From assembly GCA_028868305.1 (NCBI GenBank), contig JAGWUS010000005.1:21098-85097 (forward strand): DNA of 64,000 nt, given 5' to 3'. The notes under the pieces were generated by a model. The model saw only the letters and a list, made by a program, of their open reading frames with translations, had not been told where the DNA came from and made no database searches. The DNA comes from Burkholderiales bacterium. Its GTDB lineage: Bacteria; Pseudomonadota; Gammaproteobacteria; Burkholderiales; Burkholderiaceae_C. The translations under genes were made by a program, and so were the position numbers. Below are positions 48,015 to 56,265 of the stretch, piece by piece (positions within the stretch are counted from its first letter, which is position 1; the number at the start of each line of letters is the position of its first letter).

Positions 48015-48543
48015 CTATTGTTTTGATAGCATTTTCAGGAAAACATCGGTAGGCATCGGCTTGCTGAAGTAATGCCCCTGGACTTCATTGCAGCCCTGCC
48101 CGTGCAGATGATCTAATTATTCGCGCGTCTCGACGCCCTCGGCAATGGTGAGTATGCCCGGCTCTTCGCTATGGAAATAATGGCGCCGACATTGGCTCGG
48201 TCGTACAGGTCTACGGCAATGTCGCGTACAAAGGACTGGTCGATCTTGACCTTGGACACCTTGAATTTCTTGAAGTAATTCAGCGATGAATAACCGGTGC
48301 CAAAGTCGTCAATGGCAGCGTTCGGGTCGACCATGGCGACACCTTCAGTCTGCTCCAGTTCCAGCAGGTGTGCGGGCGGCCGGGCTTCTTCCAGGATGCC
48401 AGCCACCAGCTGTGGCAGGTCTGCTTGGCGAAACTGGGCCGCCGACAGGATACCTGCCTGCAAGGCGCCCTGGAACACGCAGCGCAAGGTGCTGACCTGC
48501 TCGCGTGTGCGCCGGTACGCGGCTTCGTCCGAGGCGGCTTCTA
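48015..48543 (-). pseudogene. degraded EAL-domain (c-di-GMP phosphodiesterase) gene remnant
   Basis: EAL motifs are split over two frames. One frame reads ...LELEQTEG...IDDFGTGYSSLNYFKKFKVSKVKIDQSFVRDI...IISIAK. The other reads EEPGILTIAEGVETRE, then a TAA stop, then LDHLHGQGCNEVQGHYFSKPMP. The domain's N-terminal third is missing and there is an internal gap before IDDFGTG. Confidence 0.65.
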
Positions 48544-48544
48544 C

Positions 48545-48763
48545 TCACTCGTCGCCCGAGGGTCCGGGTTCGCGCACCTGAAGCAGCAGATCTTCGGCCC
48601 GCAATTCGGTATCGGCAAAGATGACCTTGATCTTGCCTACGGTGCCGGTCTGCTGGGCGAGGCGCAAGAATTTGGCCTGCGCCGAGGCCTGTGCAAAGGC
48701 ACCGTGCTCGGCCAGCTTTTCCAGTTGCGCAAAAGGTTTGACCCGGAAAATGTAGTACGGCAC
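48545..48763 (-). CDS. small hypothetical protein (72 aa from the GTG)
   Basis: The ORF reads VPYYIFRVKPFAQLEKLAEHGAFAQASAQAKFLRLAQ... The GTG at 48761-48763 follows GAGGA with a 5-nt spacer, 8 nt after the S24 gene stop. I recognise no family. Confidence 0.35.
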   Translation of the reverse strand: MPYYIFRVKPFAQLEKLAEHGAFAQASAQAKFLRLAQQTGTVGKIKVIFADTELRAEDLLLQVREPGPSGDE

Positions 48764-48771
48764 GTTATTCC

Positions 48772-49089
48772 TCAAAGGTAGCTTTTACTGGCGCGGCGGC
48801 GCCCGGGCAAGGATTTCTGGATGATGACGCCGCGCACGGCCGAGAGATCGGCCAGCGGGATGTCGGAAAAGGCTGGGTTGAGGGCGTGCAGTCGCCAGCC
48901 CGATGCGTTGCGACAGAGCTGGCGAAAGATCCATTCGCCCCGGTGTTGGGCCAGTACATAGGCGCCATCGCGCAGCAGGCCATCGGGCTCGATAACGATG
49001 ATTTCACCTTCGTTGAATTCGGGCTCCATGCTGGTGCCGAGCACCCGCAGCACAAAGGATTCGCTGCCACTGCAGGCGCTCTCTTGCAT
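48772..49089 (-). CDS. stand-alone S24 (LexA/UmuD-type) peptidase domain, no HTH
   Basis: Contains VLGTSMEPEF (the Ser nucleophile motif G-x-S-M) and then GAYVLAQHRGEWIFRQL. The start is the ATG at 49087-49089, 11 nt after the upstream stop. Confidence 0.55.
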   Translation of the reverse strand: MQESACSGSESFVLRVLGTSMEPEFNEGEIIVIEPDGLLRDGAYVLAQHRGEWIFRQLCRNASGWRLHALNPAFSDIPLADLSAVRGVIIQKSLPGRRRASKSYL

Positions 49090-49100
49090 ATCCACCGTGC

Positions 49101-50600
49101 TCACACCAGCACTCCCACCGGCCGCGCCAGCACATTCGTGAAAATCTGAGCGGCGGGGATGCCGACCGCACGCAGCTCGGCATCCAGAGTGCAGACGAAT
49201 TGCTCGGGGCCGGCCAGGTAAAAATCGCACTCAATGTCGAACAGGTCGGTCCGCATGGCGCGCGCCATTTGCAGGGTGCCGAAGGTGATGTCGGTCTCAC
49301 TCAGCAACTCGTACTCGAACGGGTCCAGGGCTTCAGACCAGGCGCGGCACTGGTTGGCCAGGAAGTGGCCGTCGGGCTGGGTCGACAACCAGAACAGCGA
49401 CAGGGAGGGAGCTGACTCCAGCGCCAGGGCGTGTTCGATCAGGCTCTTGATGGGAGCGAAGCCCGCATCGCAGGCGGCAAACACCAGTGGCCGGTGGCCT
49501 TCGGCCAGCACGAACTCACCACAGGGCCCCCACACCGTGACCGCATCGCCGGCCTTGATGTTGCCGGAAAAAAGTTGCTGGGCGAACGGATCCTGTGCGT
49601 TGCGCGGGATGAAGAAGTGCAGGTTGCGGTCGTCGCAGGGGCAACTGGCCACCGGGTAGAGGGCGTGCAGATCGCTGCCGCCGGGCCCGGTCAGGCCCAG
49701 CGTGACGGACTGCCCGGCGAGAAAGCGCAAACGGTGGCTCCGTGGTGTCTGCAGGTGCAGCAATCGCGTGTCGGGTGCCAGGCTGCTTACGCCGCGCACC
49801 TGGGTCACTATCTGCTGCTGCGGGATGTCCTGCGGTCCGCTGGCTTCGAGCAATTCCAGGGTGAGTTCGCTACTGGCCGCCGTATGGGCGCACATGAGGG
49901 TGTAGCCCTGGCTTTTTTCGGCCTCGGACAGGGGGTAGTCGAAGGTCTGGGTCCTGGCGACCTGCCCCGAGATCACGCGCACCTTGCACATGCCACAGGT
50001 GCCGTTGCCGCAACCGTAGTTGAGCTTGAGGCCTGCCCGCAAGCCGGCCTGCAACAAGGTGTCGTGCCCCTCCACCGAGAACTCGTGTCCGCTGGGGCGA
50101 ACCATGACCTGTGCCGTCATGACTTTGAGCATATCGTCCATCACCGTGAGCAAATCGGCCTGTTCGGTGGCCAGCGCCTGGGCCAGCCCCTGATCGACAA
50201 AATCCTGCAACCCAGACAGCACCAGCGGGGTGGCTCCCTGGGCCTGCAGGGCATAGATGCGCTCCTGCAGGGCCACCACCAGGGCGTGGTAGCGCTGCAG
50301 GCAGCGCCGCACATCGGCCAGTTCCTGGGTCTGGTTAAACAGACGCTGCGCCAGCACTTCCTGGCTGGGCAGCAGGCGCTCACGGACGCGCTTGCCAAAG
50401 GCTTCGTCCTTGATACTGGCCACCCGCTCCAGCAGGCCGGATTCCTCGAGCTGGGTCGCCGGGTACAGGCGCAGTAACTCGTCGGTGGAGAGCAGCCCTT
50501 CGGTCAGCACCAGCGCGCCGTCACGCACCTGCTGCTGCAACGCACCGCGAGACACCCCCACCAACTGGGCGGCGCGCCAGACGGTCAGCCAATGCGTCAT
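49101..50600 (-). CDS. HTH (excisionase/MerR-like) + coiled-coil + plant-type [2Fe-2S] ferredoxin + FNR-like oxidoreductase fusion
   Basis: N-terminus WLTVWRAAQLVGVSRGALQQQVRDGAL. The [2Fe-2S] motif is CGNGTCGMCKV...C, and an FNR-like FAD/NAD module follows. The ATG at 50598-50600 overlaps the upstream TGA (ATGA). Confidence 0.7.
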   Translation of the reverse strand: MTHWLTVWRAAQLVGVSRGALQQQVRDGALVLTEGLLSTDELLRLYPATQLEESGLLERVASIKDEAFGKRVRERLLPSQEVLAQRLFNQTQELADVRRCLQRYHALVVALQERIYALQAQGATPLVLSGLQDFVDQGLAQALATEQADLLTVMDDMLKVMTAQVMVRPSGHEFSVEGHDTLLQAGLRAGLKLNYGCGNGTCGMCKVRVISGQVARTQTFDYPLSEAEKSQGYTLMCAHTAASSELTLELLEASGPQDIPQQQIVTQVRGVSSLAPDTRLLHLQTPRSHRLRFLAGQSVTLGLTGPGGSDLHALYPVASCPCDDRNLHFFIPRNAQDPFAQQLFSGNIKAGDAVTVWGPCGEFVLAEGHRPLVFAACDAGFAPIKSLIEHALALESAPSLSLFWLSTQPDGHFLANQCRAWSEALDPFEYELLSETDITFGTLQMARAMRTDLFDIECDFYLAGPEQFVCTLDAELRAVGIPAAQIFTNVLARPVGVLV

Positions 50601-51541
50601 AGCGAATCCTCCGCGCAATGCACTTCGACTTTGGGTGGCGTCACGCGCTCGTCGTGCACGTGGTCGAGATAGCGCGCCCGGTAGAGCAGGCGCGGGCACA
50701 CTGGGTCGTCAGTGAAACCGGTGCGGTCGTGCGGCACATTGTTGGCCACGATGCCCATGCCGGGCTGCATGAGCAGGCGGAACACCCAGGGCGGGTTGGA
50801 GGCCAGCAATTGCTCGATGAAAGCCACCGCCGCACGCGTGGGCGTGTCGTTCCTCCACTCAATGCTGCGGATGCGCGCGGTGTAGCGCATCTGCAGCCCG
50901 CCGTCAGCGCGCAGGTAGAACACCGGACCACTTTGCGCGGGGCGCGCCACGCCACATTCATCGGTGCGCTCGGGGATGGTCATGGCATCAGGCGCCATAA
51001 GTGCGCGCACCCAATCGGGGTTGGCGTCGCGCAAGGCCATGTAGATCATCTCGTGGTCGGCCAGGCCACTCACGCCGCCCTCGCCCGCGCTGCGCACGCA
51101 GTGCAGGATCATGCCCTCGATGCGCCGCGCCTGCGGGTGGTAGTAGCCATCGGTGTGCCATTTGATGGGTTTGTTGGTGTAGGGGATGAAGTCGGCGCGT
51201 GGTCCGCCCTCATCATCCCCGGAAACAGCAATGGACGAAACACCGTCCTCGTCGGCCAGCCAGTTGGTGTCGAGTCGGCGCAGGCCGAGTTGGGCACCAA
51301 GGAGGCGCGGCAGTTCCTTGTCTTCAGCCGTCACCGGGCTGCGATAAAGCGACATGTTGGTTCGCGCGCACATCGCAAGGATGGCCGCTCGCTCTGTCGC
51401 GGTGAGCGCGCGCGGATCGGCAACATCCACGATCAGTTCCTCCACCCGCGCCGGATGCGCAGCCCGCTTGGCGACGCGCCAAGCGGCGTAGAGATCAGGC
51501 CGATTGAGGTCAAAGGAACTGTCACTGGCACGCATATTCAT
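50597..51541 (-). CDS. TauD/TfdA-fold (Fe(II)/2-oxoglutarate dioxygenase-like) protein
   Basis: An HxD motif in KWHTDGYYH, GEGGVSGLADHEMIY, and a distal His in VANNVPHDRTGF. The start is the ATG at 51539-51541, after GGAGG with a 7-nt spacer. Confidence 0.65.
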   Translation of the reverse strand: MNMRASDSSFDLNRPDLYAAWRVAKRAAHPARVEELIVDVADPRALTATERAAILAMCARTNMSLYRSPVTAEDKELPRLLGAQLGLRRLDTNWLADEDGVSSIAVSGDDEGGPRADFIPYTNKPIKWHTDGYYHPQARRIEGMILHCVRSAGEGGVSGLADHEMIYMALRDANPDWVRALMAPDAMTIPERTDECGVARPAQSGPVFYLRADGGLQMRYTARIRSIEWRNDTPTRAAVAFIEQLLASNPPWVFRLLMQPGMGIVANNVPHDRTGFTDDPVCPRLLYRARYLDHVHDERVTPPKVEVHCAEDSL

Positions 51542-51594
51542 TTCGTCGCCTCCAAACACATTGGCGCTGCGAAGCCGACACAGGAGGGGCATCT

Positions 51595-52203
51595 CTACTC
51601 TCCACTCATGCTGCTGCGTCGGACCGGGCGTGGCTCAATGGAAAACACCCCCTCCATGCCGCGCTGCACCATCTGCAGCGCCTCGGGCGCCTCGATCGCC
51701 ATGATCTGGTCGATCACCCAACGCTGGTCCTTGGCCGGCATCAGGGTCTCGATGCGGTGCCCCAAGTAGCGCACGAAGCCAAAGTCCGGACCTTCCGGGC
51801 CATGGGAAAAATCAGCGTAGGCATCGGCCTGCTCGTTGCACAGGTCGATGAACTGGTCACGCCGGCTTTCCTCGCCCGGCGCTGGTGGAGGCAACCATTC
51901 GACTTCGCTTTCCTCCAGGATTTCGGCGACGCGCCGCACCAGAGCAGTGGTGAACTCAATCCGCAGTTCGGAGGACATGCGTTCGTAGGCCATGCGGTCC
52001 TCCACCTGAACCAGGAACACAAGCACCTCGCGCATGAAGGCGAAGTACTGCGGCCCGACATCGATGTCGAACTTGGCCTCGCGCATCTGCTTGAGCATGT
52101 TCTGCGTCACGCGCCAGGTGATGAAGGCCATGGCGCTGGCGGTTTGCTGCGCGGTCTTGGGCGCCTCGGTCTGGAACCACTGGCTCTTGATGCGTATGGC
52201 CAT
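51595..52203 (-). CDS. hypothetical protein, predicted helical, no family recognised
   Basis: 202-aa ORF with normal-looking composition, co-oriented with and 53 nt upstream of the TauD-like gene. Confidence 0.5.
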   Translation of the reverse strand: MAIRIKSQWFQTEAPKTAQQTASAMAFITWRVTQNMLKQMREAKFDIDVGPQYFAFMREVLVFLVQVEDRMAYERMSSELRIEFTTALVRRVAEILEESEVEWLPPPAPGEESRRDQFIDLCNEQADAYADFSHGPEGPDFGFVRYLGHRIETLMPAKDQRWVIDQIMAIEAPEALQMVQRGMEGVFSIEPRPVRRSSMSGE

Positions 52204-52281
52204 GGCAGTTTCTCAGTTCTCTTGCGTCAGGCTACCGCAGGCTACAGAGCCGCAGATGATGCGGTCCAAGCCAGGAACGCC

Positions 52282-52305
52282 GTGGAACCGGCTTCGCCGG
52301 GCCAC
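52282..52305 (-). other. GC-rich bipartite hairpin in the 155-nt spacer between the DsrC paralogue and the 202-aa gene
   Basis: In GTGGAACCGGCTTCGCCGGGCCAC, CCGGC pairs with GCCGG (loop TTC) and GTGG pairs with CCAC. There is no U-tract. Confidence 0.3.
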
Positions 52306-52358
52306 TGGCGTTGCCTCCTTGAGGGGGAGACGGCGACAGCCGGCACAGGGGTGCTTCA

Positions 52359-52688
52359 TCAATACCCGCCTTTGCCCAGCGGCTGCGGTAGCCCTGCCAC
52401 CTTGGCCGCCTGCTTGGCCGGCCCCAGCGGGAACAGGTCGTACAGGTACTTGCTTTCCACGTCAGGTCTTATTTCCGCGAAACCCTTGAGCATGTTGCGA
52501 AAGTTGGGGGTATGGCCGTGCTCGCGGTACTGATCGCGCATGTAGTTGATGACTTCCCAGTGTGCATCCGTCAGCGTGATGCCTTCGGCTTCGGCAATCA
52601 CTTGCACAGCCTCTTCGCTCAGCTCGGGTTCCAGTAAATAGCCCTCGGCATCGGTGTGTAGTTCAACGCCATTGATGTTGTAGCCCAT
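52359..52688 (-). CDS. DsrC/TusE-family protein lacking both conserved C-terminal cysteines (regulatory-type paralogue)
   Basis: 109 aa, alignable over its whole length with the true DsrC at 57394 (TDAEGYL, LTDAHWEVINYMR, SKYLYDLFP.GPAKQA). It ends ...AAKVAGLPQPLGKGGY, where DsrC ends ...ACKIAGLPKPTGCV. The start is the ATG at 52686-52688, after GGAGA. Confidence 0.8.
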   Translation of the reverse strand: MGYNINGVELHTDAEGYLLEPELSEEAVQVIAEAEGITLTDAHWEVINYMRDQYREHGHTPNFRNMLKGFAEIRPDVESKYLYDLFPLGPAKQAAKVAGLPQPLGKGGY

Positions 52689-52722
52689 TGTCCGGTCTCC
52701 ATGTTTTGAGTGATGAAAAAAC

Positions 52723-53313
52723 TCAGCTGCCCACGGCAGCGGCCGATTTGTGCGGCACAAAGATGCCGCAGCCCAGCAGCCGGTGGGGCCCCAGCCCTTG
52801 CTCCTGCAGGCGCCGCGAATCCGCCAGGGACAGTGCATGCAGCATCAGGCTGAAGGTGGTCAGCACCTGCCCTGGTAGCTTTTGGCTGCCGCGCTTGCCG
52901 CACACCGTCTGCGCACGCACCGCCAGAGCCTGCAACTCGCCGGCCACGGCCTCCATGAATATCCCTTCGTCGACACCGGCCGCGGCCACGCCTGGGGCAT
53001 ACAGTGTGGTGTGCGGCAGCAGTTCGCGCAGATGGGGAGCTCCCAGTTGCAGGGTACTGCCGTCCACTTCGATCGTCCGCCCGGCCAGGGTCTGCGCCAG
53101 GGCCACCCGCGCGCGCGGCAGGCGCAGCAGCAAGCGGGTGCGCTGCGACAGCAGTGCCTGACTTTCGCCGCCGGACACCAGCTTCAACGGATGTATACCG
53201 GCTAGTGGCTCCTCCGGCAGCCAGGGCAGGGCCTGCTGCAAGGCCTGTTGCAGGGCCTGGGCATGGTCACGCGGCAGGCTGTGCCCGGCCAGTGGAAAGA
53301 CCATATCAACCAT
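52723..53313 (-). CDS. orphan Cas6-like (RAMP) protein, possibly Cas6/Cmx6 family
   Basis: The C-terminal GLGPHRLLGCG fits the Cas6 glycine-rich loop G-h-G-x5-G-h-G exactly. The N-terminus (VDMVFPLAGHSLPRDHAQAL...LPWL...GIHPL) matches my recollection of Cmx6-type proteins. No CRISPR array or other cas gene is in the window. The start is taken at the ATG at 53313. Confidence 0.45.
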   Translation of the reverse strand: MVDMVFPLAGHSLPRDHAQALQQALQQALPWLPEEPLAGIHPLKLVSGGESQALLSQRTRLLLRLPRARVALAQTLAGRTIEVDGSTLQLGAPHLRELLPHTTLYAPGVAAAGVDEGIFMEAVAGELQALAVRAQTVCGKRGSQKLPGQVLTTFSLMLHALSLADSRRLQEQGLGPHRLLGCGIFVPHKSAAAVGS

Positions 53314-53339
53314 GGTGGCTTCATCCGGATCATCCTGGC

Positions 53340-53564
53340 TCACGGGCGCTCCTGATCCTGTTGCGATTGGGCCCAGCGCAGTAGCGCCTGTCCCCACAGT
53401 TCTGCCGTCTGGGGATCGATATCGAAAATGGTGAAACGGCTCTTTTCGCGGATACGGGTGCGCAGGAAACTCATCCCGCCGGTGTCGAAATCGACCTGCT
53501 GCAATTCGATCTCTTGCCCGCCAAGCGGCACCCTGAAGTTGTCGAGCGAGGTGATCTGGGTCAT
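53340..53564 (-). CDS. small hypothetical protein (74 aa), first gene of the block divergent from dsrA
   Basis: The ORF reads MTQITSLDNFRVPLGGQEIELQQVDFDTGGMSFLRTRIREKSRFTIFDIDPQTAELWGQALL... I preferred the ATG at 53564 over the track's TTG at 53594. Confidence 0.4.
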   Translation of the reverse strand: MTQITSLDNFRVPLGGQEIELQQVDFDTGGMSFLRTRIREKSRFTIFDIDPQTAELWGQALLRWAQSQQDQERP

Positions 53565-53826
53565 GTCTGGGCCTGCTTTTGTTCGGTCCGGCAATGCAAA
53601 GGAATGCTATTGACGCAATTCCGCGCTGGCCCGTCTATAACCGGGACGGGTGGTGACACATAACCCTTTTGGGTAGCTTCACATACTCAACGAGGGGGAT
53701 AGCGAATCAAAGGCAACGCCGCCTACGATGCTCTTCATAGATAAAAAAAGAGCCGCATAAGCGCTCGAGACCCGTCAGTACAGCATTCCCGCCGTCTCAA
53801 AAACGGCATTCCGACAGGAGACAAAA

Positions 53827-55131
53827 ATGGCCAAAAAAATGCATGACACCCCCATGCTCGACCAGCTCGAGAGTGGGCCATGGCCGAGCTTCGTGACCGG
53901 TCTGAAGCGACTGGCCAAGGACAAGGACTACATGGTTGACCTCATGGGTCAGCTCGAAACCTCGTACAAAACCCGCAAGGGCTATTGGAAAGGCGGCACG
54001 GTCGGCGTGTTCGGTTACGGTGGCGGCGTGATTCCGCGCTTCACTGAACTCAAGGATGCCGACGGCAAACCCCAGTTTCCGGATGCCGCTGAATTTCACA
54101 CCCTGCGCGTGCAGCCACCGGCTGGCATGCACTACAACACGGACATACTTCGCAAGTTCTGCGACATCTGGGAAAGGCATGGCTCGGGCCTGATCGCCTT
54201 CCACGGCCAGTCGGGTGACATCATGTTCCAGGGCGCGAAGACCGACAAGGTGCAGGATGCCTTCGATGAGCTCAACGAATTGGGGTTCGATCTCGGCGGA
54301 GCCGGCCCGGCGGTCCGTACCTCCATGTCCTGCGTCGGCGCTGCGCGCTGCGAGCAGTCCTGCTACGACGAAGCCCGGGCCCATCGCCAGGTACTCAACA
54401 CATTCCTGGACGACATCCACCGCCCAGCCCTGCCCTACAAATTCAAGTTCAAATTTTCTGGCTGCCCGAACGACTGCATGAACTCGATCCAGCGCTCGGA
54501 CATGGCCGTGATCGGCACCTGGCGCGACAACATTCGTACCGACGAAACGCTGGCGCGCAAATGGTTTGCCAAGCACGGTATGAACGAACTGGTCAACGAC
54601 GTGGTCAGCCGCTGCCCGACCAAGACCATCATGTTGAAGGAAATCAAGGACGTCGCCAAAGGTCCGAAGATTTCCAGCGTCAAGATAAACGACACGCAGT
54701 GCCTGGAGATCGACAACAGCAACTGCGTGCGCTGCATGCACTGCATCAATGTGATGACGGGCGCCCTAGCCCACGGCACCGACACCGGAGCCACTGTCCT
54801 GGTGGGTGGCAAGCGCACGCTCAAGATCGGCGATCTGATGGGCACCGTAGTGGTGCCCTTTATGCCCCTGAAGACCGAAGAGGACTACAAAGCCCTGGTC
54901 GAGCTGGGCCAGAAAACCATCGACTTCTTCGCCGAAAACGCGTTGGAGCACGAGCGTACCGGCGAGATGATCGAGCGTATCGGCCTGGTCAACTTCCTCG
55001 AAGGCATCGGCCTCGAAATCGACCCGAACATGGTCTCCACACCGCGCACCAATCCCTATGTGCGCGCCGATGGCTGGGACGATGAAGTGGCCAAGATCAA
55101 TGCCCGCAAGCAAGCCGCTGCTGGCGGCTGA
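53827..55131 (+). CDS. dsrA: dissimilatory sulfite reductase alpha subunit
   Basis: 434 aa with siroheme/Fe-S motifs SMSCVGAARCEQSC and KFKFSGCPNDC plus a ferredoxin insert (CPTK...CVRCMHC). An SD (AGGAGA) precedes the ATG. Confidence 0.95.
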   Translation: MAKKMHDTPMLDQLESGPWPSFVTGLKRLAKDKDYMVDLMGQLETSYKTRKGYWKGGTVGVFGYGGGVIPRFTELKDADGKPQFPDAAEFHTLRVQPPAGMHYNTDILRKFCDIWERHGSGLIAFHGQSGDIMFQGAKTDKVQDAFDELNELGFDLGGAGPAVRTSMSCVGAARCEQSCYDEARAHRQVLNTFLDDIHRPALPYKFKFKFSGCPNDCMNSIQRSDMAVIGTWRDNIRTDETLARKWFAKHGMNELVNDVVSRCPTKTIMLKEIKDVAKGPKISSVKINDTQCLEIDNSNCVRCMHCINVMTGALAHGTDTGATVLVGGKRTLKIGDLMGTVVVPFMPLKTEEDYKALVELGQKTIDFFAENALEHERTGEMIERIGLVNFLEGIGLEIDPNMVSTPRTNPYVRADGWDDEVAKINARKQAAAGG

Positions 55132-55194: not shown

Positions 55195-56265
55195 ATGGCC
55201 CAAATGCGCACCCCCATCGAGAGCGGCGTACCGGACAACAAACAGTACCTGCACCCCACGCTGCTGAAAAACTACGGCAACTGGAAATACCACGACCGGC
55301 CCCGCCCCGGCGTGCTGCACCACGTTGCACACAATGGCGACGAGGTCTGGTCGGTGCGTGCCGGCACGCAGCGCCAAATGGACGTCTACACCATTCGCAA
55401 GCTGTGCGACATCGCCGACACCTATGCCGAAGGGCATGTGCGGTTCACGATCCGCTCCAACATCGAGTTCATGGTGTCGGACCCGAACAAGGTGGCACCG
55501 TTAATCGAGTCGCTCACCAGTAACGGATTCCCGGTCGGCGGTACCGGCAATTCGGTATCGATGATTGCCCACACCCAGGGCTGGCTGCACTGCGATATTC
55601 CCGGCACCGATGCCTCGGGCGCGGTGAAGGCGCTGATGGACGACCTGCATGCGGAATTCATCAAGGAAGAAATGCCCAACCGGGTGCACCTGTCCACCTC
55701 CTGCTGCGAAATCAATTGCGGCGGCCAGGCGGATATCGCCATCATCGTGCAGCACACCAAGCCGCCCAAGATCAACCACGACCTGGTGGCCAATGCCTGT
55801 GAGCGTCCGGCGGTGGTGGCGCGCTGCCCGGTGGCGGCCATTCGCCCCGCATTGGTCAATGGCAAGCCCTCGCTTGAAGTAGACGAGAAAAAGTGCATTT
55901 GCTGCGGCGCCTGCTACCCACCCTGCCCGCCCATGCAGATCAACGATCCCGAGCACTCCAAGCTGGCCATCTGGGTAGGCGGGAAGAACTCGAACGCACG
56001 CGGCAAGCCCACGTTCATGAAGATGGTGGCTTCCGGTCTGCCCAACAACCCGCCGCGGTGGCCCGAAGTCTCCGCCATGGTGAAGAAAATTCTCTACACC
56101 TACAAGGAAGACGCCCGCCCGTGGGAGCGTTTGTCCGACTGGATCGAACGCATCGGCTGGCCGCAGTTTTTCGAGAAGTGCGACCTGCCCTTCACCAAGT
56201 ACCTGATCGACGACTGGCGCGGTTCCCGTGCCAGCCTGAACGCCTCGACCCATATCCGCTTCTGA
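55195..56265 (+). CDS. dsrB: dissimilatory sulfite reductase beta subunit
   Basis: 356 aa with GWLHCDIPG, STSCCEINCGG and a ferredoxin domain (CPVAAIRP...CICCGACYPPCP). Confidence 0.95.
   Translation: MAQMRTPIESGVPDNKQYLHPTLLKNYGNWKYHDRPRPGVLHHVAHNGDEVWSVRAGTQRQMDVYTIRKLCDIADTYAEGHVRFTIRSNIEFMVSDPNKVAPLIESLTSNGFPVGGTGNSVSMIAHTQGWLHCDIPGTDASGAVKALMDDLHAEFIKEEMPNRVHLSTSCCEINCGGQADIAIIVQHTKPPKINHDLVANACERPAVVARCPVAAIRPALVNGKPSLEVDEKKCICCGACYPPCPPMQINDPEHSKLAIWVGGKNSNARGKPTFMKMVASGLPNNPPRWPEVSAMVKKILYTYKEDARPWERLSDWIERIGWPQFFEKCDLPFTKYLIDDWRGSRASLNASTHIRF

Follow-up and report, generated by a model that had tools for sequence, protein, structure and literature searches.

What is the function of eight genes that stand back-to-back with dsrA in a bacterium whose dsr operon is of the oxidative type? 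Among the routes by which microbes oxidize sulfur, reverse Dsr is a main one, and to our knowledge its regulation and protection in aerobic and facultative sulfur oxidizers are essentially unknown. The eight genes, here designated g1 to g8 (counted outward from dsrA), lie in a stretch of 64,000 nucleotides (nt) from a Burkholderiales bacterium (contig JAGWUS010000005.1, positions 21,098 to 85,097), which as a whole is called the window in the following. Very probably the block represents, in its Comamonadaceae-type form, an accessory operon of reverse Dsr that is widespread and always divergent from dsrA. The recurrent core of this operon consists of a TauD-like dioxygenase (DsrQ), a RAMP protein of the Cas6/Cmx6 family and a cysteine-less DsrC paralogue with a flexible C-terminal arm, the last residues of which are an invariant KGGY. 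Proteins that recur along with this core are those of the helical g4 family, an S24 peptidase core with a small protein after it, either DUF6967 or a protein of 65 residues, DUF6866, a double TusA and additional 2-oxoglutarate (2OG) oxygenases. The g6 protein, in which a predicted MerR-like helix-turn-helix (HTH) is joined to a [2Fe-2S] domain and a pseudo-FNR half, is confined to some lineages.

An alignment of g4 homologs was scanned over one genome per species, which gave 218 relatives; the best 80 of the 218 loci, from Hydrogenophaga, Curvibacter, Hylemonella, Rhodoferax, Polaromonas and other Burkholderiales, were used, and the presence of genes in them was scored by tblastn with the proteins of the window (labels between L023 and L169 denote related loci or contigs fetched for comparison). 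The block was colinear in 80/80 loci, with unchanged gene order and back-to-back with dsrAB. Found were g1 in all 70 loci that reach its position and g8 in 61 of 71 (absent in 10), and among the loci whose contigs extend to them divergent dsrA in 61/61 and dsrB in 59/59. The median identity to the relatives is 58–77% for the proteins of the block versus 87–92% for DsrAB. Judged by similarity, the window probably derives from a bacterium of the Comamonadaceae type. A preliminary description of the locus, made from the window alone, had suggested such a comparison, and the genes indeed proved to be co-conserved with each other and with dsrAB.

The core is kept beside dsrA in at least three further gene orders, in distant lineages and in metagenomes. 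In L081 dsrA (69% identical) stands next to genes for a TauD-like protein, 65 and 236 residues, a Cas6-like and a DsrC-like protein, (DUF6866) and a g4-like protein, in this order. In L088 and L090 the series beginning at dsrA is DUF6967, Cas6-like, double TusA, g4-like, g6-like and DUF6866, and in L083, on a contig that stops short of dsrA, it is DUF6967, Cas6-like, double TusA, DsrC-like, DsrC-like, g4-like and TauD-like. The contigs of L091 and L092 also end before dsrA and contain DsrC-like, g4-like, TauD-like, g6-like and S24 genes and genes for 69 and 150 residues, followed on the opposite strand by YeeE-like, DsrE2 and TusA genes. The commonest version, here called type B, is without g6 and has the TauD-like gene as the first gene beside dsrA: in L096 and L098 dsrMCHFEBA adjoins genes for a TauD-like protein, 211–240 residues, a Cas6-like and a DsrC-like protein, and on the opposite strand lie genes for S24, 97 residues, two P4H-type 2OG oxygenases and 107 residues, then g4-like and DUF6866.

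Metagenome contigs were scanned with an alignment of the Cas6-like protein, which gave at least 588 relatives, the best 80 loci of which were examined. Among these best 80, the TauD-like gene was upstream of the Cas6-like gene in 38/40, dsrA was divergent in 24/26, and a DsrC-like gene lay directly downstream of the Cas6-like gene in 47/60, with 46 of these 47 proteins ending in RKGGY. In the distant versions the identity of DsrA goes down to 69% and that of the Cas6-like protein to 36–47%. That the core has remained beside dsrA despite repeated rearrangement argues for a functional link rather than for inherited synteny.

The two additional oxygenases of type B are of the prolyl-hydroxylase/YbiX type (2OG-Fe(II)) and lie together with three small proteins behind the S24 gene (L096:7238-9149, L098:7320-9231), where a Sel1-repeat protein is also encoded. 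The double-TusA proteins, encoded where the DsrC-like gene would be or next to it (L083:1022-1570, L088:2475-2963), keep both CPxP cysteines and have an extra conserved (D/N)CPG motif per domain.

One member of the block has a name in the literature. According to Löffler et al. (2020, PMC7596348), the name 'dsrQ' was given by Lenk et al. (2012) to a tauD-like gene that lies upstream of dsrA in divergent orientation; the release of sulfite from sulfonates by DsrQ is a speculation made in PMC7596348 and PMC9371685. Hausmann et al. (2018, PMC6018796) listed 'DsrQ/DsrU (unknown functions)' among the genes of sulfur oxidizers. For Methylovirgula thiovorans HY1, Gwak et al. (2022, PMC9371685) reported that TauD/DsrQ (MHY1_00078) adjoins DsrAB (MHY1_00079-80) and that a DsrC-like protein (MHY1_00075) is without CysA, which they regarded as regulatory; genes 00076-77 are left unmentioned. 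From the type B pattern MHY1_00076-77 probably encode the Cas6-like protein and the protein of approximately 240 residues. The opinion first held, that no described system combines genes of this kind, was too strong, since these papers name the TauD-like gene dsrQ (PMC7596348), list DsrQ/DsrU (PMC6018796) and mention a Cys-less DsrC beside DsrQ (PMC9371685). In literature searches, which did not extend to Lenk et al. (2012), no description was found of the whole cluster, nor of its Cas6-like gene, g4, the g6 fusion, the S24 core or the KGGY tail. Like g5, the dsrQ of the literature is a TauD-family gene transcribed divergently from dsrA in a dsr cluster of the oxidative type, and its place immediately beside dsrA is exactly that of the TauD-like gene in type B, but it has been treated as a single gene, whereas g5 is the fifth of eight in a conserved set. 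The block consists of the dsrQ-type accessory genes of aerobic reverse-Dsr sulfur oxidizers, with a broader conserved membership than the literature found records, so that the isolated remark 'tauD-like dsrQ upstream of dsrA' becomes a defined gene set conserved across many lineages. The features of the locus are compiled in Table 1.

Table 1. Genes and other features of the locus (positions in the window).
Feature	Position	Strand	Description
g1	53340-53564	-	74 residues, DUF6967, first gene of the block
g2	52723-53313	-	196 residues, Cas6/Cmx6-family RAMP protein outside any CRISPR-cas locus
g3	52359-52688	-	109 residues, cysteine-less DsrC/TusE paralogue (RspA class), C-terminal ...PLGKGGY
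g4	51595-52203	-	202 residues, all-helical, unnamed broad family
g5	50597-51541	-	314 residues, TauD/TfdA-family Fe(II)/2OG dioxygenase; by position and family the 'dsrQ' of the literature
g6	49101-50600	-	499 residues; predicted MerR/excisionase-like winged HTH and coiled coil, plant-type [2Fe-2S] ferredoxin domain, FNR-like module without flavin and NAD(P)H motifs
g7	48772-49089	-	105 residues, stand-alone S24 (LexA/UmuD-type) Ser/Lys peptidase core
g8	48545-48763	-	72 residues, GTG start, matches no family
Ninth-gene remnant	48449-48529	-	approximately 30 codons, without start codon, fused to an EAL-domain fragment (open reading frame 48113-48487)
Conserved dsrA/g1 intergenic core	53600-53740	none	approximately 130 nt, from alignments of the intergenic regions of relatives
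dsrA	53827-55131	+	open reading frame, divergent partner of the block
dsrB	55195-56265	+	open reading frame, downstream of dsrA

The coordinates of the open reading frames agree with the eight co-oriented minus-strand genes beside and divergent from dsrA that had been described, and the gaps from g1 to g8 (26, 34, 155, 53, −4 (ATGA), 11 and 8 nt) match the earlier figures exactly. The block spans positions 48545 to 53564. Its former start stood, but its former end, 53594, is an upstream TTG, the homologs backing the ATG at 53564 as the start of g1; for g5 there is an alternative start, ATG at 51592. The ATGA overlap of g5 and g6 suggests translational coupling. In relatives the median gaps within the block are 10–79 nt. 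Codon position 3 varies 2–3 times more than position 2 in g1, g7, g8 and g4, from which, together with the colinearity in relatives, it follows that the open reading frames are real genes of a conserved operon-like unit. On the other side of the intergenic region, dsrA and dsrB are followed by genes with DsrE, DsrE, DsrH, DsrC, DsrM-like, DsrK-like, DsrL-like and DsrO-like domains (Pfam), and the operon is, judged from its sequence, of the oxidative (reverse) type. The 155-nt spacer between g3 and g4 (52204-52358) is peculiar to this genome; its median length in 75 relatives is 35 nt.

Profile searches confirmed the domains that had been assigned in the preliminary description (Cas6-like, DsrC without cysteines, TauD, [2Fe-2S]-FNR and S24). 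Of the three proteins of 74, 202 and 72 residues that it had called unknown, the latter two (g4 and g8) matched no family even at E ≤ 5, whereas g1 is a member of Pfam DUF6967 (PF22295, E 1.2e-30).

The protein of the core with the diagnostic tail is the DsrC paralogue g3 (PF04358, E 7e-33), which has no Cys in its 109 residues. Up to GLPxPxG it shares 50% identity with the DsrC encoded in the window's dsr operon, and it lacks the CysB-X10-CysA motif: at the position of CysB there is Ala, and ...PTGCV is replaced by ...PLGKGGY, so that the (G/R)KGGY arm is two residues longer than the PTGCV arm of DsrC. The ...PLGKGGY tail is invariant in 76 orthologs and KGGY is present in every other gene order. 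Presumably a dsrC-like gene (Tbd2488) is located near dsrA also in Thiobacillus denitrificans. With the DsrC fold signature and both cysteines absent, g3 fits the RspA class, which is the cysteine-less class of DsrC/TusE/RspA (defined in 2014, as cited in PMC8477390 and PMC9371685) and is viewed as regulatory in PMC9371685; g3 differs by the invariant (G/R)KGGY arm and the fixed Cas6-like neighbor, neither of which was met with in the papers searched.

This neighbor, g2, matches Cas6 (PF09559, E 6e-56), scores above the cut-off of the NCBIfam model for type I-MYXAN Cas6/Cmx6 (TIGR02807, 141.5 versus 98.85 bits) and is related in sequence to a type I-B Cas6 in the PDB (8fcj_B, E 2.5e-14). Its glycine-rich loop (G173/G175/G181-C-G183/F185/H188) is invariant among the orthologs. 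Cas6/Cmx6 is the endoribonuclease for CRISPR RNA in type I-MYXAN (I-B) CRISPR-Cas, whereas the candidate catalytic His of g2, His17, is not conserved, being present in only 49/71 orthologs. TRF and repeat searches found no CRISPR array in the window, and in 179 related records (2 Mb in total) nothing like such an array adjoins the block; profile searches identified all neighbors of g2 as non-cas genes, with no cas3, cmx8, cas7, cas5, cas1 or cas2 among them. In a plasmid collection, which contained no homolog of g4, g2 matched only the Cmx6 of cyanobacterial CRISPR systems (29–36% identity, with the G-rich loop common to both). That Cmx6 is encoded beside cas3, cmx8, cas5, cas4/cas1 and cas2 (Synechocystis pSYLB), but g2 beside the DsrC-like gene, the TauD-like gene and dsrA, with no array. 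A defense system was considered and rejected: g2 matches the Cas6 models of PADLOC, and PADLOC matched nothing else. At the stop codon of g2 there is a terminator-like GC hairpin with a T-run (52726-52740, minus strand), of which the hairpin is not conserved among relatives and the T-run is often there.

A Cas6-like gene was also seen together with a gene for a 62-residue protein as an isolated pair on an AT-rich metagenome contig (L169:7445-8687; also in L168), adjoining groEL and a HicAB-like pair, with dsr genes missing from the surrounding 8 kb, which indicates that such a pair can exist apart from dsr.

The third member of the core, g5, belongs to the TauD/TfdA family (PF02668, E 5.5e-16, 59.7 bits versus a cut-off of 27). 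The residues of the iron triad (H129-x-D131, H271) and of 2OG binding (Arg273/288/290) are present in at least 72 of 74 orthologs. The protein is remote from TauD itself and has no close characterized or solved relative (none in the PDB by sequence at E ≤ 0.01); its best NCBIfam matches, trimethyllysine and gamma-butyrobetaine dioxygenases, are weak (28 bits versus a cut-off of 268).

The fusion protein g6 has the domain order (Fer2, FAD_binding_6 and an NAD-binding-like part) of the ferredoxin-NAD(P)H reductases of the BenC/MmoC type (NCBIfam BenC E 6e-33; Fer2, PF00111, E 4e-15; FAD_binding_6, E 2e-5), from which it differs by its score (114 bits versus a cut-off of 430), the loss of RxYS and GGxGxxP and an added extension of 170 residues with the predicted HTH and coiled coil. 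The ligands of the [2Fe-2S] cluster (CX4CX2C...C), i.e. the four Cys of GCGNGTCGMCKV...LMC, vary little or not at all (≥90% conserved). Across 73 orthologs RxYS is degenerated to (A/T)xYP (here A-x-Y-P) and GGxGxxP to ACD(A/T/G)GFAP (here ACDAGFAP), and the FNR-like half contains five invariant Cys, in SCPCDD, AACD, NQCRAW and CDFY. The early impression that several members resemble sensing or binding proteins is borne out by g6, which keeps the [2Fe-2S] cysteines without FAD and NAD(P)H motifs, and by g3, without both redox cysteines.

An AlphaFold model of the N-terminus of g6 (27 homologs, mean predicted local distance difference test score (pLDDT) 65) comprises a beta-alpha-alpha-beta-beta-alpha unit followed by long helices. 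Foldseek found no significant match (best E 0.27); its list is made up mostly of the MerR family, including SoxR, and contains also the winged HTH proteins BldC, RacA and Xis. The HTH that had been ascribed to g6 is plausible from this model, which together with the non-significant ranking backs it weakly; Pfam sees no HTH. The predicted architecture can be likened to SoxR (2zhh), with its N-terminal MerR-type winged HTH, long coiled coil and [2Fe-2S] center. The cluster of SoxR is, however, bound in a short C-terminal CX2CXCX5C motif and that of g6 in a whole plant-type ferredoxin domain followed by the FNR-like shell, and g6 has no Pfam match to MerR, a family that binds to a dyad between promoter hexamers 19–20 bp apart.

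A candidate binding site is found in the DNA between dsrA and g1 (262 nt here; in relatives the median is 289 nt). When 28, 69 and 53 intergenic regions were aligned, its core proved to contain near-invariant blocks, which read on the minus strand GCTATCCCCCTCGTTGAGTA, the dyad CTACCCAAAAGGGTTA, CCCGTCCCGGTTATAGACG and ATTGCGTCAATAGC; the dyad is located at 53661-53676 and has the consensus CTACCCAnnnGGGyTA. Equivalent blocks in the same order are present in the distant L088 and L090, which have a g6 homolog, and absent from L081, L096 and L098, which have none. Neither for the intergenic core nor for the dsrA leader did RNAalifold yield a consensus structure, and the intergenic region had no match in Rfam at E ≤ 1; the conservation of the core is therefore most simply explained by a candidate protein-binding DNA.

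The stand-alone peptidase core g7 (Peptidase_S24, PF00717, E 3e-17) has the S24 fold and the Ser/Lys dyad in common with LexA, UmuD and lambda CI, with Ser20 invariant in 70/70 and Lys92 present in 69/70 orthologs. Proteins of the LexA/UmuD type have an Ala/Cys-Gly cleavage site approximately 35 residues upstream of the Ser and an N-terminal effector domain, both of which g7 lacks: there are approximately 12 residues before the FxLRVxGxSM strand and 19 before Ser20, and a conserved C-x-G at residues 6–8 is too near to the Ser for a canonical cleavage site. With 105 residues and without a cleavage-site region and an HTH or other DNA-binding domain, g7 can be likened to an already processed UmuD'-like core. 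The S24 core is always followed by a small protein, which in L091 is a g8 homolog of 69 residues. The g4 protein belongs to a broad family (966 clusters at 90% identity, 399 representatives at 50%); an AlphaFold2 model of g4 (pLDDT 85) has six helices and no fold match in the PDB (best E 0.24). A DUF6967 gene, as g1, precedes the Cas6-like gene also in L083 and L088/L090; searches of the PDB with the sequences of g1 and DUF6866 gave nothing useful.

Genes of the g4 family occur singly in unrelated settings (L094, L095, L097 and L087), among them a contig labeled Thiomargarita, and in L087 beside DUF6866, YaeQ and ArsR-type genes. The family is therefore wider than the cluster linked to dsr.

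How could these parts work together? Our best reading, which we put forward tentatively from the sequences, is that the block forms a module tuning reverse Dsr to O2, redox state and sulfur supply. Protein g6 would dimerize via its coiled coil and bind to the conserved dyad in the control region shared by dsrA and g1, and its [2Fe-2S] cluster and cysteine-rich, flavin-less FNR shell would read the redox or sulfane-sulfur state in a SoxR-like manner. As a mimic of DsrC that is unable to carry sulfur, g3 might dock on DsrAB, DsrEFH, DsrMK or DNA, with g2 and g1 as its fixed partners. The dioxygenase g5 would make the response O2-dependent, and the S24 core with its small protein could supply an irreversible proteolytic step. 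Redox- or sulfur-responsive regulation of dsr had already been proposed in the preliminary description; the co-conservation with dsrAB is strong and the conserved dyad is operator-like, while control of dsr expression is something we infer.

The tuning of Dsr is favored by the co-conservation with dsrA across gene orders, the sensor-like g3 and g6, the dyad shared with the g6-bearing L088 and L090 and, for the link to O2, the conserved catalytic residues of g5 and the extra 2OG oxygenases of other versions. Several findings weigh against it. The first 170 residues of g6 have no Pfam match, and the model of this part has a mean pLDDT of 65 and no significant fold match. The presence of the dyad tracks that of g6, which is suggestive, in five lineages only and confounded by their relatedness. 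A simple scan of the intergenic region revealed no sigma-70-type promoter, and the hexamer pairs read by eye have spacers of 20–22 nt, so that a MerR-type promoter is not established. Since g6 is absent from the commonest versions (type B), it is not a universal regulator. The model gives no role to the Cas6-like g2, and the intact catalytic residues of g5 and g7 suit an enzymatic pathway equally well.

Such a pathway could be a module for the modification, maturation or repair of proteins of Dsr under oxic conditions, which we consider rather unlikely. One or more 2OG dioxygenases would hydroxylate a protein, e.g. at the invariant Lys of the KGGY arm of g3, or remove an oxidized sulfur adduct, the S24 core would trim a partner, and the Cas6-like protein, DUF6967 and g4 would be scaffolds. 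That almost every ortholog of g5 and g7 has retained the catalytic residues is in line with this proposal, as are the KGGY arm, invariant in all gene orders, the two prolyl-hydroxylase-type oxygenases that type B adds beside the S24 gene, and the missing cleavage-site region of the S24 core, which makes an action in trans plausible. The best, weak NCBIfam matches of g5 to trimethyllysine and gamma-butyrobetaine dioxygenases point in the same direction, but the scores are far below the cut-offs, and an adenylating, E1-like enzyme, which a carrier of the GG type would need, is not among the genes. Unlikely, too, is a cluster of enzymes converting sulfonates to sulfite, in which the TauD-like enzyme would oxygenolytically free sulfite from an intracellular or ambient sulfonate, thereby feeding or relieving Dsr, with g6 as electron-transfer partner. 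This is the published speculation mentioned above, and g5, a TauD/TfdA member whose gene overlaps with that of g6, has its HxD...H triad intact and its Arg conserved. TauD-type enzymes use 2-oxoglutarate and need no reductase, however, and g6 cannot be a normal one, its FNR half being without the FAD and NAD(P)H motifs; this and the fixed Cas6-like, KGGY-DsrC and S24 partners, which are left unexplained, weaken the proposal. Moreover, g5 is remote from TauD and has no PDB sequence relative, and the conserved set contains no sulfonate transporter.

We regard it as quite improbable that control is exerted at the level of RNA, with g2 binding or cleaving a hairpin in dsr, its own or another RNA and with the TusE/DsrC-like protein as partner, as TusE is with MnmA-tRNA. 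In favor of this, TusE acts on a tRNA-enzyme complex, g2 exceeds the curated threshold of the Cas6/Cmx6 model and has retained the glycine-rich loop that is typical for RAMPs binding RNA, and in some versions the DsrC-like gene is joined or replaced by one for a double-TusA protein with its CPxP cysteines kept. Against this stand the absence of an Rfam match, the lack of a consensus structure in the dsrA leader and in the conserved core between dsrA and g1, the hairpin at the stop codon of g2, which is not conserved, His17, retained in only 49 of 71 orthologs, and the absence of a repeat array from 2 Mb of related loci; the RNA processing considered in the preliminary description is thus left without support. 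Least of all do we believe that unrelated genes have been kept beside dsrAB by shared descent alone. The best 80 loci come from one family-level group with DsrAB 81–96% identical, so that their synteny alone could be inherited, and g4-like genes are found solitary in unrelated contexts. But the core stays beside dsrA in at least four gene orders although DsrA is down to 69% and the Cas6-like protein to 36–47% identity, the intergenic gaps are short or overlapping, and the flank past g8 shows no conservation with the window.

It is conceivable, though doubtful, that a Cas6-family RAMP protein was exapted outside CRISPR to become the fixed partner of a KGGY-tailed, cysteine-less protein of the DsrC/TusE type and of an O2-dependent dioxygenase, the three forming a joint control or modification system of reverse Dsr in aerobic sulfur oxidizers. 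If so, this would be the first non-defense role for the Cas6 family, of relevance to the field of CRISPR evolution, and a function would be assigned to dsrQ. The parts offered by the locus are a candidate operator in the DNA, a [2Fe-2S] protein as candidate sensor, a putative mimic of DsrC for which the KGGY tail is diagnostic, and a Cas6 homolog without CRISPR; this type of reverse Dsr might be recognized in genomes by its Cas6-like gene and by the KGGY tail.

In the window the 3′ end of the block has been cut by a deletion or rearrangement. Relatives have past g8 a Cys-rich protein of approximately 147 residues (34/58 loci), often together with a DUF6866 gene, and past the block on the other strand YeeE-like, DsrE2 and TusA genes, which are absent from the 64-kb window. 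The remnant of the ninth gene is 60% identical over 30 residues to the Cys-rich protein (tblastn) and continues in the same frame as the C-terminal half of an EAL domain (48113-48529 overall; Pfam EAL match). Approximately 3 kb past the block, three related loci contain 10–16 copies of 75-nt tandem repeats (L023:16393-17178, L027:16628-17821, L039:16376-17163), which were rejected as CRISPR because they are whole-unit tandem repeats; they are probably coding.

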